This document shows, piece after piece, positions 6,844 through 44,975 of a stretch of DNA of 64,000 bases. The DNA comes from Escherichia phage LinBro. A program made the translations under genes and the position numbers. How positions within the stretch are numbered: the stretch's first letter is position 1; each line of letters begins with the position of its first letter. The stretch is taken from the sequence record OR896830.1, one strand, 5' to 3'. The notes under the pieces are model-generated. The model saw only the letters and a program-made list of their open reading frames with translations, was not told where the DNA came from and did no database searches.

Positions 6844-7293
6844 ATGTGTTATACAGGCGACCCAGCCAATAACCCTCTTGATAGAGTAAGAATCCTCTGC
6901 ACAGACACCAATAATGATGAAATTCTTATTGAGCAGTCTGTGCTAGAGTGGTTCTATCTAGAATCTGGAAAGGATGAAAAGAAAGCAGCCATCAAAGCTC
7001 TTAAATATTTACTCTTTCAAGTAGCCAAGATGGGAGATGAGAAGGTTGGTGGTGTTTATTTACGTAACTCTTCCAGATTCAAATCTCTGAAAGCTGTTTA
7101 TGACGACCTTGTTAAAAGCTCTGTTTCAGGACTACCCTATGCAGGTGGTATTAATCAGTGTGATATTGACATGCGTCGTCAGAATCCTTGCTCTGTCAAG
7201 AAATACACAGAATATGGTGATGCTGCCAGATACGAAGGCAGAGATTACTGCAACCGTGTTAATGGCGTATTTATTATCGAGCGAGATGAATAA
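6844..7293 (+). CDS. hypothetical head completion/connector protein
   Basis: 149 aa ORF in head-tail joining region, RBS aaggaggg upstream. Confidence 0.35.
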   Translation: MCYTGDPANNPLDRVRILCTDTNNDEILIEQSVLEWFYLESGKDEKKAAIKALKYLLFQVAKMGDEKVGGVYLRNSSRFKSLKAVYDDLVKSSVSGLPYAGGINQCDIDMRRQNPCSVKKYTEYGDAARYEGRDYCNRVNGVFIIERDE

Positions 7294-7775
7294 TGGTTAA
7301 AAGGGTTATTCACCCCGCGAGAGCAAAATTAGTCGGGGCTATGAAGAACTTGCAAACGGCTAATGCTCAAGTTGGGTATTTTCAAGAACAAGGTCAACAT
7401 AGCTCTGGTTTTTCTTATCCTGCTTTAATGTATTTACAAGAAGTTATTGGGGTTCCTTCAGCTTCTGGTAAAGTATATCGTAGGTTGTTTGAAATCACTA
7501 TGATGCTAAACAAACAGACCTTGTTAGAGCAGACTAAGAAGAATCTATATAAGCAACTTAGCAGTCTCAACACAGACCCTTCAAATACCTTAGAAGCATT
7601 TGCAAAGAATGCTCAAAAGGCAATTAAAAGAGGTTTTGGTAATTCTGCTATCCTCCCTCCTAACGCACCTTCCACAGTCAAGAAAAAAGGCTTTAACGCA
7701 CCTCTTGTTGAGACAGGTGACTTAAGAGATAACCTTGCTTATAAAATTTCTACTAAGAAGGGTATTAAGAAATGA
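7293..7775 (+). CDS. hypothetical head-tail connector protein
   Basis: 160 aa ORF, ATGA/TAATG coupling with neighbours. Confidence 0.35.
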   Translation: MVKRVIHPARAKLVGAMKNLQTANAQVGYFQEQGQHSSGFSYPALMYLQEVIGVPSASGKVYRRLFEITMMLNKQTLLEQTKKNLYKQLSSLNTDPSNTLEAFAKNAQKAIKRGFGNSAILPPNAPSTVKKKGFNAPLVETGDLRDNLAYKISTKKGIKK

Positions 7776-8173
7776 GACTCTTAAACAGACACAGCTTTGT
7801 AGTAAAGCGTAAAGTCTCTGAAGACGGTTATTATAATGATGATGGTGATTGGGTAGCTTCACAAGATATTGTAGAGGTTAACTGCAAAGGTAATATCCAG
7901 CCATATATCAAAGGTTCTGTAAAGAATGGTACACAGATTGCTTTACCGGAAGGTATCAGGCTTACCGATACAAGAATCCTGTACACCACATATAAACTTA
8001 GAACTTCAGATGATGTAGAGTGGAATGAGTCTGATATTGTTATGATTGATGGTCATGAGTATGAAGTATTTATGACTATGGATTGGTCACAGCAATTAGC
8101 CCATACATCCCATTATGAATATATCATTATTAGAAGGGATAAAATGAATGCAGTTAGAAACAGCAGAACTTGA
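7772..8173 (+). CDS. hypothetical head-tail joining protein
   Basis: 133 aa ORF overlapping neighbours by 4 and 26 nt. Confidence 0.35.
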   Translation: MRLLNRHSFVVKRKVSEDGYYNDDGDWVASQDIVEVNCKGNIQPYIKGSVKNGTQIALPEGIRLTDTRILYTTYKLRTSDDVEWNESDIVMIDGHEYEVFMTMDWSQQLAHTSHYEYIIIRRDKMNAVRNSRT

Positions 8174-8747
8174 AAAAGGTCTAGTTAGAACCTTAGTGGA
8201 TGTTATTGGTCACAGACTAGCTCGTGATAAAAATAATAGACCAAATGTAATTAGAGCTTACCCTTCTGATAACTCAAATGACAAAGGTTTAAAACCTGAC
8301 CAGCCATTTATTACCGTATATTGTCAAGATGCTGCAACACCTTATGGTTGGGTTCTTGATAAGTTTGTTGAGGATGATGTAGTTTGCTACAGAATTGCTT
8401 TTCAGATTCCAGTATTAATTACGGTGAATGGTAAAGGTGCTCACAGTATTATGCTTGAGCTTAAACAACGATTAGAGATGAGTTCAGTCAGAGATTTAAT
8501 CCTTGAAGAAACAGGAGCTACAGTACTAGACACTGGAGCTATCCCGAATGACTACACTTATCTCAATACAGATTTCGAAAATTCTGCGCCTCTTGTTGTA
8601 ACTCTTGTAAAAAACTCAGTCCTGAAGGATGAACGTGGAAGTATTATTGAGCGTGTCATTGTTGATGGTGAGTTGGTTTATGAAGAAGGACAAGAGCCAC
8701 CAGAATATACTATCCATCTAGATGTAGACTCCAAAGGGGTAAAATAA
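8148..8747 (+). CDS. hypothetical tail completion protein
   Basis: 199 aa ORF directly upstream of sheath gene. Confidence 0.35.
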   Translation: MQLETAELEKGLVRTLVDVIGHRLARDKNNRPNVIRAYPSDNSNDKGLKPDQPFITVYCQDAATPYGWVLDKFVEDDVVCYRIAFQIPVLITVNGKGAHSIMLELKQRLEMSSVRDLILEETGATVLDTGAIPNDYTYLNTDFENSAPLVVTLVKNSVLKDERGSIIERVIVDGELVYEEGQEPPEYTIHLDVDSKGVK

Positions 8748-10100
8748 ATGTGGAATCCAATTGTTAATGTAGATATTACATTGAACACCGCAGGAACTAC
8801 AAGAGAAGGTTTTGGTTTGCCACTATTCTTAGCTTCAACAGATAACTTTGAAGAAAGAGTGCGTGGTTACACTTCCTTAACTGAAGTTGCTGAAGATTTC
8901 GATGAGAATACTGCTGCATATAAGGCTGCTAAACAACTTTGGAGTCAGACTCCTAAAGTAACTCAGCTTTATATCGGTAGACGCGCTATGCAGTACACTG
9001 TATCAATTCCTGATGCCGTTACCGAAAGTACAGACTACTCAATTACTGTAGCTGTTGGCGGTGGAATTTCTCAACCATACCAGTACACAGCACAAGATTC
9101 AGACACTGCTGAGGTAGTGTTGCAACAGTTTAAAACACAGATTGAAGCTGACCCAACAATCAAAGATAAGGTTTCTGTGAATGTAACTGGTAGCAATGGC
9201 TCTGCCACAATGATTATTACCAAAGCTGGTGATAATGACTTTGTGAAAGTAACAACCACAGCACAGACTGTATATATTGCAAGTACAACTGCTGATACAG
9301 CAGCAACTGCTCTGGCAGCTATCGAAGCTTACTCTACTGACTGGTATTTCATTGCAGCAGAAGACAGAACTCAACAGTTTGTCTTAGCAATGGCTTCTGA
9401 GATTCAGGCTCGTAAGAAAATCTTCTTTACGGCTAACTCCGATGTAACAGCCCTACAAGGTACAGAATTAGCCAGTGCAAATGATGTTCCAGCACAGCTT
9501 GCTAAGAATATGTACACTCGTACAGTTTGCTTGTGGCATCACGCAGCAGCAGAAGATTATCCAGAGATGGCATACATTGCTTATGGTGCTCCATATGATG
9601 CAGGCTCAATTGCTTGGGGTAATGCTCAGCTAACTGGCGTAGCAGCTTCTCTACAACCATCTAATCAGAGACCTCTGACAAGTATTCAGAAGTCTGCTTT
9701 AGATGTACGTCACTGTAACTTTATTGACCTTGATGGTGGTGTTCCAGTGGTTCGTAGAGGGATTACTTCTGGTGGGGAATGGATTGATATCGTCCGTGGT
9801 GTTGACTGGTTAGAATCAGACCTGAAAACTTCTCTGAGAGACTTGCTAATTAACCAGAAGGGTGGTAAGATTACTTATGATGATACTGGTATTACCCGTA
9901 TTCGTCAAGTCATTGAAACCTCTCTGCAAAGAGCAGTCAACAGAAACTTCCTGTCATCTTACACAGTTAATGTTCCTAAAGCCTCTCAAGTTGCTTTAGC
10001 AGACAAGAAAGCACGTATCCTGAAAGATGTTACCTTCGCAGGTATCTTAGCAGGGGCTATCTTGGATGTTGACTTGAAAGGTACAGTGGCTTACGAATAA
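8748..10100 (+). CDS. tail sheath protein
   Basis: 450 aa ORF immediately upstream of a ~150 aa tube-sized ORF, chaperone pair and tape measure: the contractile-tail gene order. Confidence 0.55.
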   Translation: MWNPIVNVDITLNTAGTTREGFGLPLFLASTDNFEERVRGYTSLTEVAEDFDENTAAYKAAKQLWSQTPKVTQLYIGRRAMQYTVSIPDAVTESTDYSITVAVGGGISQPYQYTAQDSDTAEVVLQQFKTQIEADPTIKDKVSVNVTGSNGSATMIITKAGDNDFVKVTTTAQTVYIASTTADTAATALAAIEAYSTDWYFIAAEDRTQQFVLAMASEIQARKKIFFTANSDVTALQGTELASANDVPAQLAKNMYTRTVCLWHHAAAEDYPEMAYIAYGAPYDAGSIAWGNAQLTGVAASLQPSNQRPLTSIQKSALDVRHCNFIDLDGGVPVVRRGITSGGEWIDIVRGVDWLESDLKTSLRDLLINQKGGKITYDDTGITRIRQVIETSLQRAVNRNFLSSYTVNVPKASQVALADKKARILKDVTFAGILAGAILDVDLKGTVAYE

Positions 10101-11276: not shown

Positions 11277-19274
<7,998 letters not shown>

Positions 19275-20471: not shown

Positions 20472-22805
20472 ATGGCAGATTACAAGTTGAGTGAATTAAA
20501 CTCAATTGATACAATTCGTTCAGACGACCTCCTTCATGTCAGGGTTAAAAAGAGACCTGAAATGCTGGGTGATGAAGACCGTCGAATGACCTATCAAGAC
20601 TTCTTAGCGTCTTTTAAACTAGAAAGATTTGTTCAGATTGCTGGTAGCACTATGACGGGCGACTTAGGGATTGTTAAGTTACTTTATGGTGGTAAGGCAG
20701 TCTTTGACCCTACAGGTTCTTCTGAGATTACTATGGGGGATGTTTTAAAGACTTTTAAAATTAATGCAAATGGTCTTAAACTAACTATTGCAGATGCTTC
20801 AAGGTCTGCAACTGTTTATCATACTCTTAATAAGCCAAGCCCTAATGAACTTGGGATGAGAACTAATGCTGAGAATGATGCTAGATATGCTAGATTAGAA
20901 GTACTAAATACTTTTAAGTCTAGGCAGACAATTGTAGCAGATGGTCAAGCACTGTTGTTAAGAAGTGCAACTGATAGCCCTTCTCTCTATGTTAGAGGTC
21001 AAGACCCATCTGGAACTAATAAATGGTATGTTGGATTTAATACTTCAAATGTTCTTGGATTATCAAATGAAGCCTCTGGCACGACATTGACATTGGATTC
21101 AGCAGGTATTAATTCTAATAAGAATTTAAATATCACTGGTCAGGTTAAACCTTCAGACTGGTCTAACCTAGATGATAGATACTTTACCCAAACATTGGCT
21201 AATCAAAGATTTGCACAGTTGGCTGGTAATAACACTTTTAACGGCACTAATACATTCAACCAACTGAGTGTTTTCAAAAAAGATGGTGAAGCAATTAGGC
21301 TACAGAATGCCAATGCTGCACAACCATTGTACATTAAAGCAATTGATAGCACAGGTGTCAACAGATGGTACATTGGTAATAGTAACGAAGGTGATAACGT
21401 AGCTCTAGAAAACTACAAAACTAGTGGCAAGATTACTGTAGGGACAAGTGTTAATATCAATAAAACACTAACTGTAACTGGTCAAGTTCAACCTTCAGAT
21501 TGGACTAACATTGACTCTAGATATATTCCGGCAGCAACATTAAGTACAATTGCAAGAACTAATGCTAAGAATACTTTTTCTCAAGGTCAGATTATTAAGG
21601 CTGATGGAGAGGGTATTAGACTTCAGGGGGTAAATGATACTGGTGGTTTGTTCTTGCAAGGTTATACTTCTGATGGTGCTAAAAAGTGGTTTATGGGTAC
21701 TAATGCTTCAGGAAACTTTACTATCAGGGAGATGGTGTTAGGTACTGAACTGTCTCTTAGAGAGAACTATATCCAGTTTAATAAGAATGTAACAATCACT
21801 GGGCAGGTTCAACCATCAGACTGGACTAACCTAGATAAAAGGTACTATACCGGTTCAGCATCAAACGCCAGATACATGTATGCAGGAAAAACTGGTGAAG
21901 GTGATAATGATGCTGCTATTGCTTGGGATGCTAAGACAGGGCTGTATAATGTCAAGACTGGAGCTACATCATCAAATCTTTTACTTCAGTTATATCAGGG
22001 GTCTGAGTCATCTACACCGTCTGCGCAGCTAAGATTTAAATGGGCGAATGGTGGTATGTGGTATAGGACATCAAGAGATGGTAATGGCTTTGAGAAAAGT
22101 TGGGCTATGGTGTACACAACTGCACAGAAGCCAACCCCTTCAGATATTGGTGCATACACTAAAGCAGAAACTGACCAGAAGATTGCACAGGCAGTAAGTG
22201 ATTCAACAGACCTTAATAAAATCTACCCTGTTGGTATTGTAACGTGGTTTAACAGTAACGTTAACCCTAATACAGCACTGCCTGGTCTAACTTGGACGTA
22301 CCTTAACAATGGTGTAGGTAGAACAATCAGGATTGCAGCAGCTAACGGTTCAGATGTTGCTACAACTGGTGGTTCAGATTCTGTAACGTTATCTGTTGGT
22401 AACTTACCTTCACACACACACAGTTTTTCTGCTACTACTTCGTCTTTTGACTACGGAACAAAAAACACTAACACGACTGGTGCTCACACCCACTCTGTAA
22501 GTGGTTCTACTTCATCTGCTGGTAACCACAGCCACTCTATTTCGTGGATTGGTCAGAACTCACAGCACTATTCCGGTGGTGGTGGTGGTTACATTGGTAC
22601 AGGGCCGGGTTACACCGATGCTAACGGTGCTCACACCCACTCTGTAAGTGGTACTGCCGCTTCTGCTGGTAACCATGCTCACAGTGTTGGTATTGGTGCT
22701 CACAGTCATACAGTTAGTGGTAACACTGGTGGTACAGGTTCTGGTTCAGCATTTAGTGTTACTAACCAGTTCTATAAGTTAATGGCTTGGGTGAGGACTG
22801 CTTAA
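20472..22805 (+). CDS. long tail fibre protein with three internal tandem repeats and His-rich C-terminal tip
   Basis: 777 aa; three ~110 aa repeats each ending TGQV(K/Q)PSDW(S/T)N(L/I)D.RY; C-terminal HTHS/HSHS/HAHS motifs paralogous to the upstream fibre. Confidence 0.65.
21000..21850 (+). repeat. three tandem ~330-nt coding repeats inside long tail fibre gene
   Basis: Repeat units at approx 21008-21190, 21351-21530, 21671-21850 encode ..(K/R)W(Y/F)(V/I/M)G..(T/N)(G)QV.PSDW.N.D.RY. Confidence 0.55.
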
Positions 22806-23493: not shown

Positions 23494-24393
23494 TTACTTA
23501 CCTACTGACAGAGGTGCTTCAATCTTTCCTGCATGTTGGTAGTTGCTAATACCACCAATAAAATCACTTGCGGTAAGGTGTTTTAGGTCACTTAGCGTGT
23601 TAAGCTGCACACCAATCTCAAAAGTAGGCGCATGGAACTCTTTATTGTTCATCAGTTCATAAACCTGCTTCATATGGTTCTGATAAATCTGAGTATCCCC
23701 AAAGACACCTATCAAGTACCGTGGAGTATATCCAGTCATCTTGCAAAGTACTTCCAGAATAAAACCATAAGATGCAATGTTAAATGGAAGACCTAAAAAG
23801 GTGTCTACAGAACGTTGATACCATTGTAAGTCAACCTCACCTTCGTTAGTGATATAAATCTGAAACAGAACATGACAAGGTGCTAAAGCCATTGAGTTAG
23901 CTGCAATATCTGCTGCATTCCAAGCATTAACAAGCATGTAACGGTCTGTGATATCACCTTTCATCTTCGTTACTAAGGTCTCTAACTGGTCTACAACACA
24001 ACCGTTATGACCTTCAAAGTTTCTCCACTGAACCCCGTAGATTCTCCCACCTGCATCTTCTAACCAGTCTTGCTCAGAAGAATAGTTAGAGCTTAACCAG
24101 CGTTTAAAATCATCTGACCAGATAGTCCAACGTTCCCCATCATTTTCACCCCAAGTACGGTAACGGAGTTCACCAAGTTTATTCTCACCATTCAGGAACC
24201 ATAAAGCTTCCCCAATAACTTGCCGTGTAAACACCTGTTTAGATGTTAAGAGTGGGAAACCAGTACGCATATCAAAACGAAATTTTGGTGGAGCAAATGC
24301 AGAGATAACATCTCCAGTTCGTGTAGTACGCAGTTCACCAACGGATAAAACATGGTTCAGGATATTTTTGTAACTCAAATCAGCTTGTGACAT
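23494..24393 (-). CDS. thyA: thymidylate synthase
   Basis: Motifs ALAPCH, LQWYQRSVDTFLGLPFNIASY and DTQIYQNH align with the ThyA active-site regions. Confidence 0.9.
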   Translation of the reverse strand: MSQADLSYKNILNHVLSVGELRTTRTGDVISAFAPPKFRFDMRTGFPLLTSKQVFTRQVIGEALWFLNGENKLGELRYRTWGENDGERWTIWSDDFKRWLSSNYSSEQDWLEDAGGRIYGVQWRNFEGHNGCVVDQLETLVTKMKGDITDRYMLVNAWNAADIAANSMALAPCHVLFQIYITNEGEVDLQWYQRSVDTFLGLPFNIASYGFILEVLCKMTGYTPRYLIGVFGDTQIYQNHMKQVYELMNNKEFHAPTFEIGVQLNTLSDLKHLTASDFIGGISNYQHAGKIEAPLSVGK

Positions 24394-24394
24394 A

Positions 24395-24940
24395 TCAAAA
24401 GTGTCCTTTTACTTGTGGAACATAGATTTCAAAGGTTGCTTTACCATCATCTGAAGGTCTCGACTGCACCTTTGCAAATACACGGTTATCATACAGCTTA
24501 TCAAAGAAGTTTTCAAAAGGTAAATACACAGTGGCCTCTTCAGTAACTTTATGGAAAACTGTATGGAAAACTACACCAGCATATGGTAAAGCATCGACAA
24601 GAACACCTGCACCACCAATTACAAAGACATCTTCATCAATAGAGCTATCAAGATACTTCAAAAATGCTCCAAAGGACTCTTTGCTGGCCTTAGCATACAT
24701 TACATCTTCTTTACCAAAGTCTATACCATAATAAGGTACAGAGTTTGTTAAGATAAGGTTTTCACGTTCTGGTAAAGGCTTACTACCCAGAGTCTTGAAA
24801 GTCTCGTTACCCATAACTACTAAGTTATCTTTAGTAAGTCTCTTAAACTCTTGCATATCCTGTTTATGTCGAGGCCACGGCATACCAGTTGGAGTGCCAA
24901 ATTCACCGTTTTCACCACTTGCAAATATTAGTTTAATCAT
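24395..24940 (-). CDS. folA: dihydrofolate reductase
   Basis: N-terminal IFASGENGEFG..GMPW and VMGNETFKTLG..PLPER.N and VIGGAGV motifs typical of DHFR; adjacent to thyA. Confidence 0.8.
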   Translation of the reverse strand: MIKLIFASGENGEFGTPTGMPWPRHKQDMQEFKRLTKDNLVVMGNETFKTLGSKPLPERENLILTNSVPYYGIDFGKEDVMYAKASKESFGAFLKYLDSSIDEDVFVIGGAGVLVDALPYAGVVFHTVFHKVTEEATVYLPFENFFDKLYDNRVFAKVQSRPSDDGKATFEIYVPQVKGHF

Positions 24941-25197
24941 TTTGTAAACCCTTTCTTAATGAACCAGTTGATGACACTCTTCACAACTTTACTACGATGG
25001 TAGATAAAATGTGGAGAGGGTTGGTATGAACCATAAGCCCAGAAAGCGATAATTTCATTACACCCTGTACATCGGGTACTTTCTTCAGCAATATGACCGT
25101 TGACTATTTCACTTACCTCACCTTGTAAGTCTGTACACCCACAATGTGGACATCGGATAGGTGTTCCATCAGACTCATAGCAGTGTTCAATTTTCAT
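24937..25197 (-). CDS. small zinc-ribbon protein
   Basis: 86 aa, CPHCGC...CTGC cysteine pairs. Confidence 0.4.
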   Translation of the reverse strand: MKIEHCYESDGTPIRCPHCGCTDLQGEVSEIVNGHIAEESTRCTGCNEIIAFWAYGSYQPSPHFIYHRSKVVKSVINWFIKKGFTK

Positions 25198-25713
25198 TTA
25201 CTTAACCTCAAAAACTGGCTCAAGAACCAATATAAAGTCTACACAGTCATCTTCTTCATCCAGAATACCATCAAAGTTCTTAGGAACGAAGTCGAAGAGG
25301 CTCATAACAAAACAGTCAGAAGTGACCCTGATAGTTCCTCCCATGTTCTCTACAGTTAACACTGTACGACTTTCTTTTACCTCCCTCAGAAGATTACTCA
25401 CAAAGTCATCTAAGAAGTACTTCATCAGTGACTTGAAACCTTTAGGATAATCTGTACCAGAGTATGTTTCAATCTGTGGTACAAGCTTAACATTTATACT
25501 AGTCTTTGTTAAGAACGTTTTAGAGAACATACTATCAGGTAACTTACAAACAGTCTTTCCAGTACCTTCATGCTCAATCTCAACAAAACCAGCTTCATCG
25601 CCACATGTAACTATTTTAAAAGATGCTTCATTCTCATACTGTGAAGCCATAAACTTTTTAAGCATTTCTTTAAGGAAATCTGCATGAGCATCCTGTAAGA
25701 AGATATCAATCAT
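25198..25713 (-). CDS. hypothetical protein
   Basis: 171 aa ORF, tightly packed with neighbours. Confidence 0.4.
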   Translation of the reverse strand: MIDIFLQDAHADFLKEMLKKFMASQYENEASFKIVTCGDEAGFVEIEHEGTGKTVCKLPDSMFSKTFLTKTSINVKLVPQIETYSGTDYPKGFKSLMKYFLDDFVSNLLREVKESRTVLTVENMGGTIRVTSDCFVMSLFDFVPKNFDGILDEEDDCVDFILVLEPVFEVK

Positions 25714-25726
25714 AGTTAATCACCTA

Positions 25727-26086
25727 TTATGGGAACAGACACTTAATGTCATCGTTTTTGAAAACAAAACTTGTGTAGTTATGACCATCAACATCCAACC
25801 AAACAGCCTGAACATCTACACCATCAAGATTCTGGTAAAGCTCTTTGATGAAGTGGTCTTTTACAATCTGACTGCTAGTTGTTTCCAGCTTAATGTTCGA
25901 GATTGCTGAACCTACAGCCATATAGCCCATGACACGTTTCTTCTCAGTATGCTTAATCTTACCATCTTTGTAAGCCATAATGAGATTGGAAAGAATCTTT
26001 ACACCATAATACTTTTCAAGGTGAGTAGGCACACCATAAAAGCCTAATGCGAAGTTTTCAGAGTGGATAATGTTTTCACGTTTCAT
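25727..26086 (-). CDS. hypothetical protein
   Basis: 119 aa ORF. Confidence 0.4.
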   Translation of the reverse strand: MKRENIIHSENFALGFYGVPTHLEKYYGVKILSNLIMAYKDGKIKHTEKKRVMGYMAVGSAISNIKLETTSSQIVKDHFIKELYQNLDGVDVQAVWLDVDGHNYTSFVFKNDDIKCLFP

Positions 26087-26087
26087 A

Positions 26088-26417
26088 TTAATCTGCCAAC
26101 CTTAAATTGAAATTAACACCAAATTTTTCGCATACTTCCAACATATACTCAAGGGAGACGTTACCAGTGAGGTGGATTATGTTGGATACACGAGCCTGAG
26201 AGATACCACAAATTTTAGCGACTTGCTCTTGAGAAAGACCTCTGGATTTAATCTCTCTCTTAAAACGATGTGCAACGAAGTCTCTCATTTCGTCTACATC
26301 CATTGGACAAATATAACTCTCCATTTCAGCCTCTCTATCAGCCTCCCAATCATCTTGTGGAGCATAAGGGTCAAAAACCTCATTCATCTTTCTTCTTCCG
26401 TTTGCGTGAAGTGTCAA
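26088..26417 (-). CDS. helix-turn-helix DNA-binding protein (XRE-like)
   Basis: C-terminal LSQEQVAKICGISQARVSNI helix-turn-helix; true start may be the internal ATG at 26387. Confidence 0.5.
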   Translation of the reverse strand: MTLHANGRRKMNEVFDPYAPQDDWEADREAEMESYICPMDVDEMRDFVAHRFKREIKSRGLSQEQVAKICGISQARVSNIIHLTGNVSLEYMLEVCEKFGVNFNLRLAD

Positions 26418-26592
26418 TCAATGAATCTATGTTTGTAGCCCTAACCTTTTCACGTTCATCGTTAAGATAATCATCAAGAGCCTTTTCAATCTGTGAATCA
26501 TCTTGACAGATAACTGTAAAGACTGTAAAGCCGTCTGTATCGTCAATTATCTTACCATAACCGCTTCTGGGATGTAACTTTTTAAGAGCCAT
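26380..26592 (-). CDS. hypothetical small protein
   Basis: 70 aa ORF with basic C-terminal tail RKRKKKDE. Confidence 0.3.
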   Translation of the reverse strand: MALKKLHPRSGYGKIIDDTDGFTVFTVICQDDSQIEKALDDYLNDEREKVRATNIDSLIDTSRKRKKKDE

Positions 26593-26593
26593 A

Positions 26594-26977
26594 TCAAATA
26601 CCTGTGCAGCTTCTGTTTTCTAAGAAATACTCAACACCGTACATAGCTTTTTGCATCAAATCTTCTTTAAACTGGATACGGTGGTTGAGCATAGACTGTA
26701 CATCAATATCATCACGGTGTTTCTCTTTAATGTTTGCAGATTGCAGGAAATACTCTGCAAGAACACGATACTGGTAGTCAGTCACCTTATCAGTCATCTC
26801 TGTTAAAGACTCTTCAGAGATTGGTTTAAGTAGCTCACCATTCGCTAGAGCAACACCCTTTACAATCTGACAAGTATCCTCTTGGACGCCTGATAAGTTC
26901 ACATTTGGTAGTTCTGTTGAATGAACTGGTAAACTCATTGTCATAACCATTGCAGCAGCTAATAAAATCTTTTTCAT
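26594..26977 (-). CDS. secreted/periplasmic protein with signal peptide
   Basis: N-terminal MKKILLAAAMVMTMSLPVHS signal-like sequence; RBS GAGG upstream. Confidence 0.5.
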   Translation of the reverse strand: MKKILLAAAMVMTMSLPVHSTELPNVNLSGVQEDTCQIVKGVALANGELLKPISEESLTEMTDKVTDYQYRVLAEYFLQSANIKEKHRDDIDVQSMLNHRIQFKEDLMQKAMYGVEYFLENRSCTGI

Positions 26978-27249
26978 AATGACCTCAAAGTTATATTAAA
27001 TTTTGTATTACGTTGAGTATAAAAATAAGCTATAACACCTGACTTGTCAACAGATTTTATAGCTTATTTGGCAGATTTTTTATAAGGCTACTGCCATCCT
27101 TCCATGCTAGACTACGCCATGCCAAACCAGACTTCACATCACCTTACCGTGCAATACATCACTTAAAAACCCTCTTAGAAGACTCTTAAGTGATACTGGT
27201 GAGTACCCGTTGGTTTATGCTGCTCAGTATACTCACCAAATTTTCTATG

Positions 27250-27438
27250 TCAACAACTTTCTAATAAAGTTTTATGAAGATTTTGCTTAACGACCCGCCT
27301 CACATGCCTATGCTCTTTCTTGATAAAGAGTGACCTCTTCTTAACAGAGCGCCTATTCTTGTAAGTATTACTAGGATACTTATCATGAACCGGACAACAA
27401 CTCCCCGGATTTGTAAACTTGATAATCTCTCTTTTCAC
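27250..27438 (-). CDS. small basic protein (hypothetical)
   Basis: 62 aa Lys/Arg-rich ORF directly downstream of ligase gene. Confidence 0.25.
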   Translation of the reverse strand: MKREIIKFTNPGSCCPVHDKYPSNTYKNRRSVKKRSLFIKKEHRHVRRVVKQNLHKTLLESC

Positions 27439-28577
27439 TATTCATAATCCCTAATAACTAACCCAACAGGGAACAGCAGAGACCCCTTACGAGTCATCTT
27501 CTGGAACTGAACCGTTAAAGGCTTTCCGATAAACTCATCAGGGTGCTCAGCAAGATACTGTTTTTTCTCATGAGTAGTCTTCCATGAGACATCTACAAAG
27601 ACGTTAGGAAGAGTCTCTACAACGAACTTACCATGACCACGTTTATCGGTCTTGACACCAGTAACTTTAAACTCTTCAGTGTGCATCTTCTTGTGCTTAA
27701 TCAAGAAGTATGAACGGTGACCACACTCATAGAAGGAGTCTTCAGAGATTGAACGGTACATTGCACCTTCAAACTTAGCTTCAACCCACTTATCATGAGC
27801 TTCATCAAACTCTTCCCAAGAATTTACACGACGAGATTTAACAGGAACAACTTTACAGCCGTCTCTAAAATCATTCAATGGTGAAGTCTCAATAATATCT
27901 CTACGCTCAGGCCACGTCTTAGTACTGTCACAGATATCGTACCAGTAAAACTTGAGTAGATGTCGGTCAGGATTGTCTTCATTTTTAATCATAGAGACAA
28001 TATCTTCTAAGTCCCACCCATGAGCATAAATCTCACCATCAAATTCATCAACATCTTTATGAATCCTCAACATTGCCATAATGTCAGGTATTAGCTCAGT
28101 AGGAATTTTATAAACAGTATTCTCACGAGAGTATGCTGTAAATACACTACCAATACTCAAGCGTCTTGAAATTCTACAACGAACACCATCAAACTTCGGT
28201 TGAGCATCAGCAGGGAATTTCAAATACTTTGCATGACTAACCTTTGAAGCATCATGAGCAAGCTGTACACCTACCTTCTCAGTATTCTGTGCAGACTCTT
28301 TTGTGTAAGCATAACCTTTACGGTCAACTTGCTTTTTATACTTAGCAGCAACTTCAAAGAGAGCTTGCTGTTCAGCGTTACGCTCATTCTTTTTACCGAT
28401 GTTTTTAGGTTCTGCTGTATACTCTTCAAACATCATCTTGCCATTTTCTTTACCATAGGTTGTAATAACTTTGTCACCTACAGCAACGCATGACCAGACG
28501 TTGAAAGAGCCATCTTTATTTTGTTTGTATAGGATTGTCATTTTATTCCTCTGAGTGATACCAAGTGTTGCAAGCAT
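27438..28577 (-). CDS. ATP-dependent DNA ligase
   Basis: Nucleotidyltransferase motif I KFDGVRC (KxDG) at ~aa 128; 379 aa, T7-ligase-like size. Confidence 0.75.
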   Translation of the reverse strand: MLATLGITQRNKMTILYKQNKDGSFNVWSCVAVGDKVITTYGKENGKMMFEEYTAEPKNIGKKNERNAEQQALFEVAAKYKKQVDRKGYAYTKESAQNTEKVGVQLAHDASKVSHAKYLKFPADAQPKFDGVRCRISRRLSIGSVFTAYSRENTVYKIPTELIPDIMAMLRIHKDVDEFDGEIYAHGWDLEDIVSMIKNEDNPDRHLLKFYWYDICDSTKTWPERRDIIETSPLNDFRDGCKVVPVKSRRVNSWEEFDEAHDKWVEAKFEGAMYRSISEDSFYECGHRSYFLIKHKKMHTEEFKVTGVKTDKRGHGKFVVETLPNVFVDVSWKTTHEKKQYLAEHPDEFIGKPLTVQFQKMTRKGSLLFPVGLVIRDYE

Positions 28578-28734
28578 TACATGCGTAAAGCTCTAAGTCA
28601 TTTTTATCCGGTTTATGAAAACAGTTTGCTCCGCAGTGGCAACGAAATGGCTTTCCACCAACTGTCAGGACGAAGGACTGAATCTTTCCATCAGGAGTTC
28701 GTACAGCATTTTTATGCTTATCTTCTTTGTTCAT
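28543..28734 (-). CDS. small zinc-ribbon protein
   Basis: 63 aa, CHCGANC...CNAC. Confidence 0.35.
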   Translation of the reverse strand: MNKEDKHKNAVRTPDGKIQSFVLTVGGKPFRCHCGANCFHKPDKNDLELYACNACNTWYHSEE

Positions 28735-29036
28735 TTCCTCTTGCCACCAATTTCTACGTCAATAACTTGAACATCACCAGCAACATCAAACTTATGAATG
28801 ATGCTTTCCACAGTGTAAGTCCAACCATCAATGCGAACCAACTCACCTTCTCGTGGGACGATTGGGTTACGTTGAGCTACCGTTGTAGTAGAGTGAACAA
28901 CATCATAACAATAGATATAGTTTACTAGGACTTCCATCGTGAAACCCTCACTCAATAACCGTAGTGTGTGATTGACCATTTTTGCCATAGCTATAAGATG
29001 TTGTTGTTTGGGAGTTTGGACATCTGACAACAACAA
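28731..29036 (-). CDS. hypothetical protein
   Basis: 101 aa ORF. Confidence 0.35.
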   Translation of the reverse strand: MLLSDVQTPKQQHLIAMAKMVNHTLRLLSEGFTMEVLVNYIYCYDVVHSTTTVAQRNPIVPREGELVRIDGWTYTVESIIHKFDVAGDVQVIDVEIGGKRK

Positions 29037-29208
29037 TATCTCTGCTTATAGCATCACCATGTAACTTGTATACTCTGCAATCTTGCATCTCTGGTGGGAG
29101 GCTGTAAGAAGCATTTTTATCTTCATAAGAAGGGTTGCAGCCAGATAGAAAAATAACACCAAGCGCAATTACTGATTTCCACATAATACACCCCTGTTTA
29201 CTGTTCAC
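28948..29208 (-). CDS. putative lipoprotein
   Basis: Signal peptide with lipobox-like FLSGC; likely true start at internal Met MWKSV. Confidence 0.4.
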   Translation of the reverse strand: MNSKQGCIMWKSVIALGVIFLSGCNPSYEDKNASYSLPPEMQDCRVYKLHGDAISRDIVVVRCPNSQTTTSYSYGKNGQSHTTVIE

Positions 29209-29353
29209 GATGCTCTACTTCTCTGTATGTACGTCGATAATGAATGATAAGTGGTGCTAATTCATTGCTTTTAACATTTGAGCGTAACAGTTGCCAGTCA
29301 AAACCTTTACCAACTCTTCCATATAAATTAAAAAACTTAACTTTGCGTTTCAT
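29198..29353 (-). CDS. small basic hypothetical protein
   Basis: 51 aa ORF (MKRKVKFFNLYGRVGKGFDW...) below the ORF-track cutoff, preceded by GGAGATACC RBS-like sequence. Confidence 0.25.
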   Translation of the reverse strand: MKRKVKFFNLYGRVGKGFDWQLLRSNVKSNELAPLIIHYRRTYREVEHREQ

Positions 29354-29371
29354 TTTCGGTATCTCCAATAT

Positions 29372-29599
29372 TCAGAGGTTAATATTAATACGTTCGCCCT
29401 TAAGGACTCCAGTACGGTCCCTTGCAATCTTACCATCAACAATAAGGATATGCACAGACCTTAAAGAGTCATTATTAAAACCTTTTACGAACTTACTAGG
29501 CATCACTACAATAAGCATCTCCTGAATCAACTCTGGAGTATAGCAGTTATCATGAAGTTGTTGGATAACGTCTGCAAGTGTCATTTTTGATGTCTCCAA
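29372..29599 (-). CDS. hypothetical protein
   Basis: 75 aa ORF. Confidence 0.35.
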   Translation of the reverse strand: METSKMTLADVIQQLHDNCYTPELIQEMLIVVMPSKFVKGFNNDSLRSVHILIVDGKIARDRTGVLKGERININL

Positions 29600-29790
29600 T
29601 ACTCAATGTCAATAAGTTCTTGTGCAATGCTTTTCAGATTACCTTTCAAGAAAACCTTCTCAGAACCTGAAAGAGATGAATTGTCAATTAACCTGTTCAT
29701 TCTCTCAAACAACTTCTGCTTACGGTTCTTGATAGTTTCCTTTGAAGCGCCTTTCATCATCGCTGCATGGGTTCTTCCACGATGGCTCAT
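29581..29790 (-). CDS. hypothetical protein
   Basis: 69 aa ORF with GGAGGA RBS 7 nt upstream. Confidence 0.4.
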   Translation of the reverse strand: MSHRGRTHAAMMKGASKETIKNRKQKLFERMNRLIDNSSLSGSEKVFLKGNLKSIAQELIDIEYWRHQK

Positions 29791-29851
29791 AAGTCCTCCT
29801 ATACAAGATATTGTATAAGGTACTCTTCCCTGAGCACCTTGTCAATACTAA

Positions 29852-30408
29852 TTAGTGTACTTCAAGCCAATTCTTACCAACTTTACCAGTACCAGTTACA
29901 AGCGTTTCCTCCTTAAGTCCTAAGTTTCTTGATGCCTGACCATACATCCAGTCAATCACTGCTTTAACATCTTGTGTCATCTCTTCTGGGCACTCCCAAC
30001 TGTTCTCATCGTGGTATGCTAGAAGCAATCTAGCACCAATAGCTGGTTTTCGACCATTCAGCTTTGTAAGACCCTCTTCACAAGTTCTTCTACAAGCGAG
30101 GTTGATGGCTTCATTCTGAACCTGACTTTCCGAACCCATGAGCAGATAATTCAATAGTTTGTGTGGAGATTTACACCACAACCATGCACCAGCAACCTTT
30201 ACAAAACCACCTTTAGAGATTGCAGCAGTCTTACCAAATACCTCTTCAAGAGCCTTCTTAGTGGCTTTGAAGTCAGCTTCCAAATTATCTATCAACTTTT
30301 TAATCTTAGGGAGGCGTACAAAGTAAGTTTGCTTAGTTAAAGCACCTTCTTCGGTTGTTGATGCTTTAATCGTCTTGGCAAACTTCTCATCACCTGCCCC
30401 AAACAATA
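29852..30408 (-). CDS. DNA polymerase (family A), exon 2
   Basis: Begins LFGAGDEK (end of O-helix/motif B) and contains motif C LLLAYHDE; joined in frame to exon 1 by predicted splicing. Confidence 0.7.
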
Positions 30409-31209
30409 CATCTGGTCAATACACTCGCAAGGTGTACCAGTTCTCTTATGAACTTCTCCGCATTTCTACGGAGTGTCGGACTATATCACGTAGTAGTAAT
30501 ACTACCGTTGCACTTGGGAATGGTCATTAGCTTACCACCCTACTCTACTCAGTTCATACATTAAGTATGCTTTTCGATAGTCTCTGAACGTTTCTCTGTT
30601 AGGAACTCTAAAATACTATTGTTTACTAAGGTATGCAATTGCTCTCTGCATATTATCAACGCTATCTGCAAGCAACCCCAAAGCCCTATTGCAATTGTGG
30701 CACAACATACCTCTTACTTTTCCGGTTTTGTGGTCATGGTCAACGACAAGTTTAGCCTTATGCCGTGAACTATTCATGATAAAACCTTCACCGCCACAAA
30801 TTTGACATTTGTAATCACAGTTACGAAGTAGGGTTTCAACCTCTTCTCTTTCTAAACCATATGTTCTCAGGTAGTAATTCTTAACTCTACCTTTCTCTCC
30901 GCAATGCGAAGAACAATAAACTTGCCTTGCTGTTCTAGGCATGAACACCTTCTCACAGCTAGGACATTTCTTAGTAAGAACCCTATGTTCTGCTCTTCTG
31001 TCAAATTTTAATACGCAACTTCTGCACCGTTTTTGATTGTATTGGTATGGTTTAAACTCTGCACCACACTCAGTACACAATCTCTCTTTGTAACCTGCCA
31101 TTGTCTCTCTCCTTTGCTTTAGGAGTCCTAACAGAGACTTCGCTGCTGATTACCATATCTTTACAGACTTAGGCTTCCAGCAATTCACAACGTTTTACAT
31201 GCGCCACTG
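30409..31209 (-). mobile_element. group I intron interrupting the DNA polymerase gene (carries an HNH ORF)
   Basis: Exon 1 ends in U (31210) and intron ends in G (30409); P1 helix exon UAUGCGU with guide GCGCAUG (31204-31198); core elements GTTCAGAGACTA (30589-30578) and GATATAGTCC (30487-30478) on - strand; exon lengths sum in frame (2173+557=2730). Confidence 0.75.
30616..31101 (-). CDS. intron-encoded HNH / endonuclease VII-family homing endonuclease
   Basis: Cys-rich zinc ribbons (CTECG, CRSC, CPSC, CQIC) and VVDHDHKTGKVRGMLCHNCNRALG catalytic motif. Confidence 0.7.
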   Translation of the reverse strand: MAGYKERLCTECGAEFKPYQYNQKRCRSCVLKFDRRAEHRVLTKKCPSCEKVFMPRTARQVYCSSHCGEKGRVKNYYLRTYGLEREEVETLLRNCDYKCQICGGEGFIMNSSRHKAKLVVDHDHKTGKVRGMLCHNCNRALGLLADSVDNMQRAIAYLSKQ

Positions 31210-42427: not shown

Positions 42428-44662
42428 ATGATTAAGACAATTAAAAAATCAAACGGTACAGTAGTAAGCTTTGACCCAGAAAGACTGAATAAGTGGGCAT
42501 CATGGGCAGATAAACGTGGGATTATCTGGTCAGAAGTCACTATGGAAGCCATGAAACGTGTTTATGAGGGTTGCACTACAAAAGAGATGCACCAAGCCAT
42601 GATTGATGTTTGTGTTGATAAACAAACTCAAGAGTACTCAGATATGGCTGGACGACTGCTTTTGGGTATTATCTACAAAGAAGCCTTTGGAGGCTTTACT
42701 AAGGTTCCTACGCTGGTTACCTTCGTTAAAAATATGGAGAGAGCAGGACTTTGGGAGAAGATGGATTATTCACAGGAAGAGCTTGAATACCTGCAAGGTT
42801 ACATCGTACACTCAAAAGATATCTCTTACGGTTATGCAGTCTTGAAACAGTTCAGAGACAAGTATGGTATCCGTGATATTAAAACGGGAAGACTTTTTGA
42901 GTCACCACAATTTATGTTTATGGGTATGGCTATGAAAGCTTTTGAGAAGCAACCAAAGCACCGTAGACTGCAAGATGTTATCAAGCTGTACACTTATCTA
43001 TCTGACCTGAAGATTAATGCTCCCACACCTTATTTAAACGGTTTAAGAGCTACTAAATCAGGTTATGCGTCATGCTGTTTGATTAAGGCGAATGATACTG
43101 CTGAATCTCTAGGTATTGCTGCAAAGGTTGCCTATGACATGACCACAAAGCAAGCTGGTATTGGGATGCTGATGGAGACTCGCACTATTGGTGATGGCAT
43201 CCGTCAAAATACTATTGAACACATGGGTAAGCTGCCTTATTATAAGCTTGTACGTTCATCTGTAGAGGCAAACAAACAGAAGAGTCGTGGTGGTTCAGCT
43301 AATAACTTCTACACTGCTCTAGACCCGCAGATTGAAGATTTACTGCGTTTGAAGCACCCTACAACGGTTCCTTCTAAACGTATTAATGAGATGGACTACT
43401 CATTCGGCACAAACGATTATTTCTGGCAGTGTGTTCAGTATGATACAGATTGGTTGCTATTCTCTTACAAAGATGCACCAAAACTCTATGACATGTTCTA
43501 CACAGCATCTGCTGATGAGTTTGCTATGGCAGTTGGTCACGCAGTACATACAGGAGTTAAGCACAGACGAGTAAAGGCTCGTGAAATTGCTAAGCTGTTT
43601 ATTCAACAGCGTTATGCTACAGGTCGTGTGTATCCATTCTTCACTAACAATGCAAACACACATACACCATTTAAAGAACCATTGAAGATGTCAAATCTTT
43701 GTATGGAAATTGTATTGCCAGTGTATGGTTTTGAGAAAGAGACAGACCTTTACAGAGACGATGCTGTGAAAGAGGATGGTGAGGTGGCTCTTTGCTTCCT
43801 AGCTAGTTTGGTTGCAGGGAGAATTTCAGAAGATGAATACGCTGACGTTGCTTATTATGCTCTTGCAATGGTTGACTCCGTTATTGACCTTATGGATTAT
43901 CCGTATCCGTCGATGCGTAACCATGTTCAGAAGCGTCGTTCTGTTGGGATTGGCCTTACAAATGTGGCTCATTACCTTGCGAAGAACTACGTGAACTACT
44001 CTTCACGAGCAGGTAAAACGAAACTTCATGAACTTGCAGAGATGCACTCTTACTATCTGCATGAAGCCTCTCTGAGACTTGCTAAAGAGCGTGGCGTTCC
44101 AGAGTACATGAAGTTCACTAAGTATCCTGAAGGCTGGGTTCCTCCAAAGACAGCTAACAAGAAGATTGATGAAAAGCATGATGCAAAACTACGATATGAT
44201 TGGGATGACTTAGCACAACGTATCAAAGAAAATGGTGGAATCCGAAACTCTGTATTAGAAGCTTACATGCCTAATGAGAGTTCTTCACTAGCAACTAATA
44301 CGACAAACGGCTTGTACCCAATTCGTGACTTTATTTTAACTAAAAAGTCTGCAACCGGTAACGTACTGTTTATTGTTCCAGATTATGAAGAACTGAAGTA
44401 TGTCTATGAAATTGCTTGGGATATTGACACCTTTGATATGATTGATTGTTATGCAATTGTTCAAAAGTTCACTGGTCAGGCTATCTCTTCAGACTTCTAT
44501 GTTGACTATGCAAAGTCTAAGAAGGTATCATTGGCTCAAGCTTTGAAGTACATGATTTATGCCAACTCGGTAGGTATGAAAACCATGTACTACCTTAACA
44601 GTCGCATTGGTGTAGGTAAATCTGCACTGCAAGATGCTTATTGCGAGGGTTGTGGTGTTTAG
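42428..44662 (+). CDS. nrdA: ribonucleotide reductase class I large subunit
   Basis: N-terminal ATP-cone-like segment; active-site motif NLCMEI; 744 aa; followed by nrdB. Confidence 0.85.
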   Translation: MIKTIKKSNGTVVSFDPERLNKWASWADKRGIIWSEVTMEAMKRVYEGCTTKEMHQAMIDVCVDKQTQEYSDMAGRLLLGIIYKEAFGGFTKVPTLVTFVKNMERAGLWEKMDYSQEELEYLQGYIVHSKDISYGYAVLKQFRDKYGIRDIKTGRLFESPQFMFMGMAMKAFEKQPKHRRLQDVIKLYTYLSDLKINAPTPYLNGLRATKSGYASCCLIKANDTAESLGIAAKVAYDMTTKQAGIGMLMETRTIGDGIRQNTIEHMGKLPYYKLVRSSVEANKQKSRGGSANNFYTALDPQIEDLLRLKHPTTVPSKRINEMDYSFGTNDYFWQCVQYDTDWLLFSYKDAPKLYDMFYTASADEFAMAVGHAVHTGVKHRRVKAREIAKLFIQQRYATGRVYPFFTNNANTHTPFKEPLKMSNLCMEIVLPVYGFEKETDLYRDDAVKEDGEVALCFLASLVAGRISEDEYADVAYYALAMVDSVIDLMDYPYPSMRNHVQKRRSVGIGLTNVAHYLAKNYVNYSSRAGKTKLHELAEMHSYYLHEASLRLAKERGVPEYMKFTKYPEGWVPPKTANKKIDEKHDAKLRYDWDDLAQRIKENGGIRNSVLEAYMPNESSSLATNTTNGLYPIRDFILTKKSATGNVLFIVPDYEELKYVYEIAWDIDTFDMIDCYAIVQKFTGQAISSDFYVDYAKSKKVSLAQALKYMIYANSVGMKTMYYLNSRIGVGKSALQDAYCEGCGV

Positions 44663-44975
44663 TTTTAATAACTATGAGGGTCGTAAAAGACCCTCTAAAA
44701 ATAACTTTGGAGAGACCATGAAAGATTTAATAGAAAAACATGAGCGGCCTATATACTTGCTCCACAAGCCTCGGAAAACGATGTACTATGTTAGTAGCAC
44801 AGATATGATGATAAAACAAAATGATGACTCATGGGTTGCTGGTATCTCTTACATCTCTACAGCAGATGGTAAAATATACGCAAGACCTTATGAGATGTTC
44901 AATGAAGAAAATTGGGAAGTTTTAGACAGAAAACAAGCCTTAGAAATGATAAAGAAAGGAGAAATCACACTATGA
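44634..44975 (+). CDS. hypothetical protein
   Basis: 113 aa ORF between nrdA and nrdB, ATGA overlap with nrdB start. Confidence 0.35.
   Translation: MLIARVVVFSFNNYEGRKRPSKNNFGETMKDLIEKHERPIYLLHKPRKTMYYVSSTDMMIKQNDDSWVAGISYISTADGKIYARPYEMFNEENWEVLDRKQALEMIKKGEITL

Follow-up and report, generated by a model that had tools for sequence, protein, structure and literature searches.

The 272-bp non-coding gap at positions 26978-27249 of a 64,000-nucleotide stretch of the genome of Escherichia phage LinBro (OR896830.1; the whole stretch is called the window here) is most probably a stripped-down VIPR locus, which would consist of one guide RNA with its promoter and terminal hairpin, without vipr or vap, and would carry a guide aimed at VIPR itself. 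Its identity as a solo guide RNA (vrRNA) locus, and vipr as the target that the guide encodes, are well supported by the comparison of the sequence with those of related phages; from the same comparison we infer either an action in trans on the Vipr of a rival phage or the status of a fossil.

VIPR, described in 2026, is an RNA-guided DNA-binding system that phages deploy against satellites and prophages. In the preprint that defines it, the system comprises a small RAMP-like protein, Vipr (~20 kDa), an accessory protein, Vap, and vrRNAs of ~100 nt, in which 9-16 YNNGG repeats are followed by an invariant 3' tail (bioRxiv 10.64898/2026.04.26.720920). Recognition follows a one-base-skip code: the two variable bases (NN) of each unit pair with double-stranded DNA, and one target base is skipped per unit (10.64898/2026.04.26.720920). 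The type locus is that of phage SUSP1 (type II, with vap1), a close relative of SUSP2, and its targets lie in a satellite (10.64898/2026.04.26.720920). In the SUSP1 clade the vrRNA tail is structured and contains a pseudoknot, and a vrRNA is expected to be expressed at that length and to co-purify with Vipr. A cryo-EM preprint lists H17, E71, M72, R138, C173, D177, W178 and R179 as the RNA-contact residues of Vipr (10.64898/2026.04.26.720927). The words 'orphan' and 'Felix' do not occur in the text of the defining preprint (10.64898/2026.04.26.720920), whose pipeline began from Vipr proteins, so that loci such as that of the window were outside its scope.

The probable guide RNA and its coded target

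Every gene around the gap is on the minus strand, and the gap is therefore read on that strand. The two parts of the vrRNA are the following:

27104..27158, minus strand: vrRNA repeat tract of 11 pentamers, TGTAT TGCAC GGTAA GGTGA TGTGA AGTCT GGTTT GGCAT GGCGT AGTCT AGCAT
27063..27103, minus strand: vrRNA 3' tail, GGAAGGAUGGCAGUAGCCUUAUAAAAAAUCUGCCAAAUAAG, with the hairpin UGGCAG/CUGCCA (27096..27091 and 27074..27069)

The guide is formed by the NN dinucleotides of the first 10 units (27158..27109), while the last unit is the counterpart of GGTAT, which is near-constant in other vrRNAs. If the AGTGA at the end of the adjacent hairpin HpA (described below) is counted, 12 consecutive pentamers of the form.GY (second base G, third base a pyrimidine) are found at 27163..27104 on the minus strand; this is the only run of at least seven such pentamers on either strand of the 64 kb, and the longest run obtained in 100 shuffles was 6. 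The tract aligns in register with the tracts of 79 unique relatives, the NN bases differing between lineages, and within it both G2 and Y3 are conserved in 11/11 units and G1 in 5/11. T or A at G1 is also present in ~20% of the units in the guides of vipr-carrying phages, in which TGT and AGT units occur. The tracts of vipr-less phages as a class are no more degenerate than those of vipr-carrying ones, with 7.6 vs 7.9 full GGY units per 10 (p ~0.3). Guide boundaries were parsed by rule, in a sample of ~40 phage loci and 10 satellite loci.

The 3' limit of the tail was taken from the ~40-nt tail length given in the VIPR preprint. Its sequence is identical to that of the last-vrRNA tail in all of the vipr-carrying relatives examined, SUSP2 included. 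Taken alone, the tail hairpin is weak (-7.9 kcal/mol, z = -1.15), and in the paralogous tail located upstream of vipr GGUAG/CUACC replaces GGCAG/CUGCC, a compensatory change. Another tail type (GGGUAG..., absent from the window) has AAUCGGA/UYCGAUU in place of AGUCUCA/UGAGACU, which by eye amounts to three compensatory pairs. In the tail of the window (27063-27096), the hairpin loop UAGCCUUAU and the segment AUAAGCUA, from the 5' arm of a 12-bp inverted repeat, are complementary by eye; as a proposal sketched by eye and without covariation, the UAGCCUUAU/AUAAGCUA pairing would permit a pseudoknot competing with the terminal hairpin of the locus. A small regulatory RNA was among the functions offered for the gap by an earlier note, drawn up by a model from the letters of the window; the gap most likely does encode one, and what needs revision is its kind, a VIPR guide RNA made of xGY-NN pentamers and not a generic small RNA.

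Guides were matched to vipr by searching all of the DNA fetched, after which the near-constant last unit was removed from the guides. Five matches describe the outcome in single-guide, vipr-less phages:

vipr nt 468-497 (codons ITKEELLMVL), guide of the window and of VpaE1_ev78: 20/20 coded bases, the skipped bases falling at codon position 3 (wobble)
vipr nt 468-497, guide of Si3: 20/20, on a vipr allele with CTA instead of TTG
vipr nt 40-63, opposite strand, guide of EC6: 16/16
vipr nt 361-393, guide of ULIM9: 20/22
vipr nt 99-125, guide of FSL SP-012: 15/18

In 300 shuffles of the unit order of the window guide the maximum was 16/20 (p <= 0.003), and a rough estimate of the chance of a 20/20 match to vipr is ~2e-8. 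No guide of the vipr-carrying phages (n=45) matches the vipr cassette, the best reaching 0.73. Furthermore, in the lineage of the window (7 phages) only one NN polymorphism recurs, TT/CT, and its two states agree with Leu-codon alleles of vipr that exist today, TTG and CTA/CTG. On the side of the target, vipr alleles at six of the loci carry, within the guide-matched site, K159R (AGA/CGA), first-base changes of Leu codons and L162I. The K159R change would break the match with the guide, and the wobble positions of the site vary freely; K159R, the Leu first-base changes and L162I are possible escape variants, as far as allele comparison can suggest.

The code was also applied to satellites. Since the VIPR preprint reports a satellite baseplate hub protein 72% identical to that of SUSP1, the satellite was sought with the baseplate region of the window. 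An island of ~11 kb, with tape-measure, baseplate, HNH and serine recombinase genes, is present in 474 of 5,426 complete E. coli genomes, at several insertion sites (yciI-tonB, the yecD region and ymdF-wrbA), and the baseplate-hub gene of the window (13483-14283) has 91-95% DNA identity to the island gene (loci L042 and L047-L051). This island is presumed to be the Felix O1/SUSP satellite of the VIPR preprint, and no vipr was found in it by tblastn. One island locus (L042) includes a stretch of ~2 kb without annotated gene (7166-9178), and a satellite-like contig of IMG/VR (L045) has its own 11-unit GGY-NN tract at 11506-11560 (minus strand), in agreement with the preprint.

With satellite matches defined by an NN match of at least 80% and z of at least 3 against the 10 satellite loci, the one-base-skip rule was reproduced: 27 of the 45 guides of vipr-carrying phages match a satellite, and skip lengths of 0, 2 and 3, as well as shuffled unit orders, give only background values (~0.6-0.75). 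Satellite matches were also found for 10/14 guides of the vipr-less phages with two guides, despite the lack of an effector in these seven phages. Single-guide vipr-less phages gave 0/7 (Fisher p = 0.002), and the best match of the window guide to the 10 satellite loci, 17/22 with z = 1.9, is not significant. An exact-pattern scan with the 11-unit code of the window, in which the constant, non-guide last unit was included, gave no match in viral contigs or species-representative genomes, and the positive-control pattern was likewise unmatched in viral contigs. Finally, vipr-carrying and vipr-less phages share three 50-nt tracts without a single difference, which indicates that some of the vipr losses or guide exchanges were recent.

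Origin and architecture of the locus

By megablast the window belongs to Felixounavirus (Felix O1-like phages, subfamily Ounavirinae), with 259 related records. In these phages the distance between the ligase gene and the gene for a 127-amino acid (aa) protein ranges from ~0.3 to 2.1 kb across 41 loci. The long forms (ASO1B, wV8, SUSP2 and Moogle) have genes for a 195-aa and a 146-aa protein in this interval, flanked by 4-5 modules composed of a hairpin, a G/T-rich tract and a structured tail, every tract being of the form (GGY NN)n. The 195-aa protein has all eight of the listed Vipr RNA-contact residues (checked by eye on the sequence), which identifies the cassette of the relatives as vipr plus vap. 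No Pfam match was obtained for Vipr, and Vap gave a below-threshold chance hit only. Vipr and Vap share 98-100% aa identity across Felixounavirus (ASO1B), Mooglevirus (Moogle) and Suspvirus (SUSP2), and distant homologues of Vipr (32-43% identity) are found in Pseudomonas, Mycobacterium, Gordonia and Listonella phages.

In the phage collection, vipr at 90% identity or more is present in 118 records vs the 259 records that match the region, and the gap of the window is retained at 95% identity or more in at least 74. In the 64-kb window tblastn with the 195-aa Vipr of ASO1B returned nothing below an E-value of 3.9, and with the 146-aa protein nothing below an E-value of 1; neither gene was found in the other 22 kb of the genome of a vipr-less relative that is colinear with it. 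The sequence of the gap is a mosaic. Its positions 1-105 (window 27260..27156: the promoter P1, the leader and HpA) match the region upstream of vipr in ASO1B with 97% identity, and positions 67-279 (window 27194..26982: HpA, tract, tail and the repeat with the promoter-like site P2) match the region downstream of vap with 86%. The two blocks of homology overlap in HpA, a hairpin that occurs twice in vipr-carrying genomes, the second copy preceding the last vrRNA, and this marks it as the deletion junction. The mosaic would fit a deletion of ~1.6 kb, comprising the other guides, vipr and vap, by recombination between the copies of HpA. In an alignment with three relatives the segment from P1 to HpA and that from the tail to the start codon are near-invariant, and the G/T-rich middle is swapped wholesale between phages.

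The tract and its tail are accompanied by these predicted signals:

27226..27253, minus strand: promoter P1, TTGACA (27253..27248), N16, TATACT (27231..27226), 11/12 consensus positions
27197..27238, minus strand: second hairpin, TGGTGAGTA / TACTCACCA, 9 bp, arms 24 nt apart
27158..27194, minus strand: hairpin HpA, AUCACUUAAGAGUCUUCU / AGGGUUUUUAAGUGAU, ~18 bp, between the leader and the repeat tract
27021..27069, minus strand: first inverted repeat (terminal hairpin), a 12-bp core plus a 5-bp inner helix with a 9-nt loop, then U5
27022..27050, minus strand: promoter-like site P2, TTGACA-N17-TATTTT, 10/12 consensus positions, upstream of the 127-aa signal-peptide gene

P1, which the earlier note overlooked, is the best sigma-70-like site in the 7 kb from 24000 to 31000, and it is unique in the window even when 3 mismatches are allowed. 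One copy, placed after the ligase gene, is found in nearly every related locus that reaches that far, with or without vipr, and its transcription start would lie near 27219. P2 is embedded in the 12-bp inverted repeat: the loop of the hairpin contains the -35 element, the 3' arm the spacer and the -10 element. The TTGACA on the minus strand in the spacer of this repeat, pointed out before, is indeed there, at 27050..27045, and it is invariant across relatives. A promoter for the secreted-protein gene, also suggested by the earlier note, finds a partial counterpart in P2, a promoter-like site inside the 12-bp repeat upstream of the 127-aa gene that is annotated as a promoter in ASO1A and ASO1B. 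Both P1 and P2 have the -35 and -10 hexamers and the 16-18 nt spacer of a sigma-70 promoter, a match to consensus only. Since the number of sigma-70-like sites in the region equals the expectation from shuffles (18 found vs 18.5 expected), the weight for the promoters rests on the score of P1 and on conservation.

Among the hairpins, HpA was likewise missed before; it is a third and stronger one, specific to the minus strand. In RNA folding, which the earlier note had advised, it has -16.5 kcal/mol (z = -5.5, with 0/200 shuffles as good), it contains G-U pairs that function only in minus-strand RNA, and TransTermHP annotates it as a terminator in ASO1A and ASO1B. The first inverted repeat was correctly described as 12-bp arms with a 20-nt spacer at 27025-27068, the arms AATAAGCTATAA / TTATAGCTTATT occupying 27025-27036 and 27057-27068; they can be extended to 19 nt with 89% complementarity. 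Its RNA folds with -17.8 kcal/mol (z = -5.1), only 1/200 shuffles being equally good, and more than 40 loci have the arms without any change. This terminal hairpin is likely the end of the P1 transcript, and its 5' arm, which overlaps the vrRNA tail, probably belongs to that tail. No terminator-like site was called by a simple terminator scan of 24000-31000, the terminal hairpin included, because the latter is AT-rich and has a 9-nt loop.

The second inverted repeat has arms at 27197-27205 and 27230-27238 that are 9/9 complementary (-15.2 kcal/mol, z = -2.9). In the minus-strand sense its 5' arm overlaps the spacer and the -10 element of P1, so that only RNA reading through from the ligase operon would contain the whole hairpin. 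It had been presented as a hairpin followed by AAATTTT and as a possible terminator of the ligase operon. The inverted repeat is present, but that is a plus-strand reading, which fails because every gene nearby is on the minus strand, where this hairpin overlaps the -10 element of P1; the structure that most resembles a terminator is the first inverted repeat, with T5 after it on the minus strand. The second hairpin is invariant in relatives and offers no covariation, which the same note had proposed as a check; the tail hairpin has the compensatory change in the paralogous tail mentioned above. The two hairpins first noted are best understood as marking the two ends of the unit, the one overlapping P1 and the other closing the RNA and carrying P2.

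The surroundings of the gap bear out its first description as an unusually long non-coding interval. It measures 272 bp between two minus-strand open reading frames (ORFs), 26594..26977 for the 127-aa protein with its signal peptide and 27250..27438 for a protein of 62 aa, and is the largest gap within a block of ~10 kb of abutting or overlapping minus-strand genes. The relatively GC-rich stretch of ~120 nt was also real, with 43.8% GC in 27100-27220 vs 39.1% in the whole window, and it is made up of the run of 12 pentamers described above. In 10 variants of the 62-aa ORF, 49/60 differences are synonymous, at codon position 3, and 11 are non-synonymous; by this pattern the ORF is to be regarded as a real gene under purifying selection, and the length of the gap therefore stands. 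The encoded protein is basic, the GTG start overlaps the ligase stop codon by one base, the stop codon falls within the -35 element of P1, and the ORF is unannotated in several of the relatives examined. The interval between ligase and P1 exists in three states (empty, with the 62-aa ORF, or with an unrelated 48-aa membrane ORF in ASO1A and humlepung), independently of the presence of vipr. Neither the 62-aa nor the 127-aa protein has a Pfam match. In the 64-kb window ARAGORN found no tRNA and Rfam gave nothing at gathering score, with only chance-level hits (E-value >=1.7) in 26900-27500, and the element in the gap goes unmentioned in the genome paper of Felix O1.

No copy of the hairpin modules or of the tract was found elsewhere in the window or in the rest of the genome of one relative. 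A motif search for hairpin modules across the window gave one hit in coding sequence and one ordinary bidirectional terminator; at 44670-44700 a GC-stem hairpin, AGAGGGTCTTTTACGACCCTC, is located just 3' of the stop codon of the plus-strand ORF 42428..44662 and resembles a bidirectional terminator. GGT-dense stretches were discarded as candidates: all of them code for Gly-rich repeats, in the 777-aa tail-fibre gene and one other ORF, and are unrelated to vrRNAs. A dense GGT run is at 22531-22750 (plus strand), within the tail-fibre ORF, and encodes Gly- and His-rich repeats; repeats in the counterpart genes were noted by the Felix O1 paper.

Possible function and rival explanations

In the mechanism that we propose for the stripped-down locus, the predicted P1 RNA would be trimmed to a vrRNA of ~100 nt. 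A phage without Vipr would be unable to use its own guide, precisely because it has no Vipr, and the guide would work only when a co-infecting vipr-carrying relative supplies the protein, or after a vipr cassette has been gained by recombination. The foreign Vipr would then take up the guide and bind its own gene, blocking the transcription of vipr, of vap and of the downstream guide array. An anti-vipr guide would be the one kind useful to a Vipr-less phage, because the target and the needed protein arrive together. It is conceivable, if somewhat doubtful for the moment, that Vipr-less Felix O1-like phages keep in this way a single 'Trojan' guide that turns the Vipr of a rival on its own gene, which would make it the first anti-VIPR element without an effector. 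Whether or not the RNA has a function, P1, P2 and the terminal hairpin probably still provide the operon downstream with promoter and terminator signals.

Several points weigh against a functional solo guide. Where transcription starts, how the RNA is processed and where its 3' end lies have all been deduced from sequence, and a selective benefit of silencing the vipr of a rival is hypothetical. G1 is G in no more than 5/11 units, the lowest value among the 79 unique tracts; Vipr makes base-specific contacts with G1, and the mutation D177A abolishes silencing (preprint 10.64898/2026.04.26.720927), so that the loading of this degenerate guide on Vipr may be weak. The single-guide lineages of ASO1A and OPT-SAL01 have no vipr match, the variation within the lineage of the window is too small to show selection on NN over G1, and no guide of the relatives matches the window genome above shuffles. 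Furthermore, the event may also have been the reverse of a deletion, an insertion of the cassette, and both of the sources on VIPR are preprints.

The main rival explanation is that the locus is a fossil, which we judge unlikely while taking it seriously. In a vipr-carrying ancestor a self-targeting last guide would have silenced VIPR, and the cassette and the other guides would then have been deleted between the HpA repeats; the leftover RNA would be inert, even if transcribed, and the region would have been kept since P1, P2 and the terminal hairpin regulate downstream genes. This explanation agrees with the geometry of the deletion, which always spares the last guide, with promoters and hairpins that are invariant with or without vipr, with the degeneration of G1 in 6/11 units and with two further G-to-A changes that separate the window from VpaE1_ev78; in addition, no benefit of silencing in trans has been found. 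It does not easily account, however, for three or four independent single-guide lineages with different anti-vipr guides, perfect or near-perfect, nor for the lack of any intermediate, with vipr and an anti-vipr guide together, among the 45 guides of vipr-carrying phages. A decaying relic is also at odds with the 20 NN bases, all of which are intact, with two guide alleles that each match extant vipr alleles, and with the retention of the gap in so many closely similar records.

The remaining explanations do without VIPR altogether, and we give them very little credence. An ordinary regulatory spacer, made of promoter, terminator and filler with the GT-rich stretch as a decaying microsatellite, would explain the promoter-like sites and hairpins, which are annotated as such in relatives, and the absence of an Rfam match; yet a microsatellite is not expected to keep the xGY period of 5 in 11/11 units with variable NN, the flanks and the tail are the same as those of SUSP-clade vrRNAs, and the complete coded match to vipr is so improbable by chance that this explanation is close to refuted. 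Equally improbable is another RNA or DNA element, such as a GcvB-like small RNA with a G/U seed, a CsrA- or TRAP-like sponge, a rut site on the other strand, or a site of replication or recombination. The likeness to such elements is superficial only (G/U richness, the GGA-containing motif AAGGAUGG and the triplets with a period of 5), while none of these options predicts conserved G2 and Y3 with free NN and a coded match to vipr, no Rfam family was found, and there is no second copy in the window or in the rest of the genome of a relative. For the GT-rich repeats, interpretations as TRAP-like, CsrA, GcvB-like, rut, primase-site or RecA-hotspot elements were abandoned, since the GGY/NN code explains the pattern.

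Significance and comparison with known systems

Three of the observations reported here appear to be absent from the text of both preprints: about half of the related Ounavirinae records lack the effector gene and still have guides at this locus; the forms with a single guide, among them the 74 or more records with the version of the gap found in the window, spell the effector gene; and anti-vipr guides were never found here together with vipr in one genome. These findings suggest that the VIPR machinery is itself the object of a further level of conflict or of self-policing. If the 'Trojan' guide is real, it would be the VIPR counterpart of anti-cas spacers, and the K159R and Leu first-base alleles of vipr would represent escape from the guide in an arms race. 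Genome annotation is also affected: long 'non-coding gaps' with GGY repeats of period 5 may be regarded as guide RNAs and are worth seeking even where no vipr gene is present.

The closest known system is the type II VIPR of SUSP1, with which the locus of the window shares the site between the ligase and the 127-aa gene (as in SUSP2, Moogle, wV8 and ASO1B), the GGY/NN pentamer scheme, the sequence of the 3' tail, the flanking hairpins, the promoter and the one-base-skip code with a perfect target, the skips falling at wobble positions. It differs in having neither vipr nor vap, one guide and not 4-5, a G1 degenerate in 6/11 units, and vipr instead of a satellite as the target. For the mechanism of deletion an analogy is offered by the PeSL (promoter-early stem-loop) cassettes that Arbiol et al., in 2010, reportedly described in T4-type phages, in which promoter/stem-loop repeats flank small accessory genes and recombination adds or removes cassettes; these belong to another phage family, have no guide tract and show no sequence relationship with the gap, so the analogy extends to the mechanism only.

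A 2016 study is said to have found an orphan CRISPR4 array (type I-F, on a bacterial chromosome) without effector genes, whose spacers are directed against those same cas genes and were reportedly proposed to block the uptake or the activity of an incoming active system. The likeness lies in effector-less guides aimed at their own effector genes; the array, however, is chromosomal, of type I-F and acts by DNA cleavage, whereas the window has a single phage-borne VIPR guide, and the known activity of VIPR is transcriptional repression. Virus-borne mini-CRISPR arrays (Medvedeva et al. 2019, PMC6858448), with one or two guides and no effector genes, have close relatives as their targets and are similar in being effector-less viral guides that depend on the effector of another genome. 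They use the Cas proteins of the host against genes of rivals in general, whereas the guide of the window would use the effector of a rival phage and target the effector gene itself. Finally, E. coli satellites associated with Felix O1/SUSP1 encode vrRNAs aimed at other satellites (10.64898/2026.04.26.720920), and a tract in a vipr-less element, such as that of the satellite-like contig L045, is a precedent for carriers that have guides only and need a foreign Vipr; the vrRNAs of these satellites are directed at other satellites, according to the preprint, whereas the guide of the window is directed at vipr.

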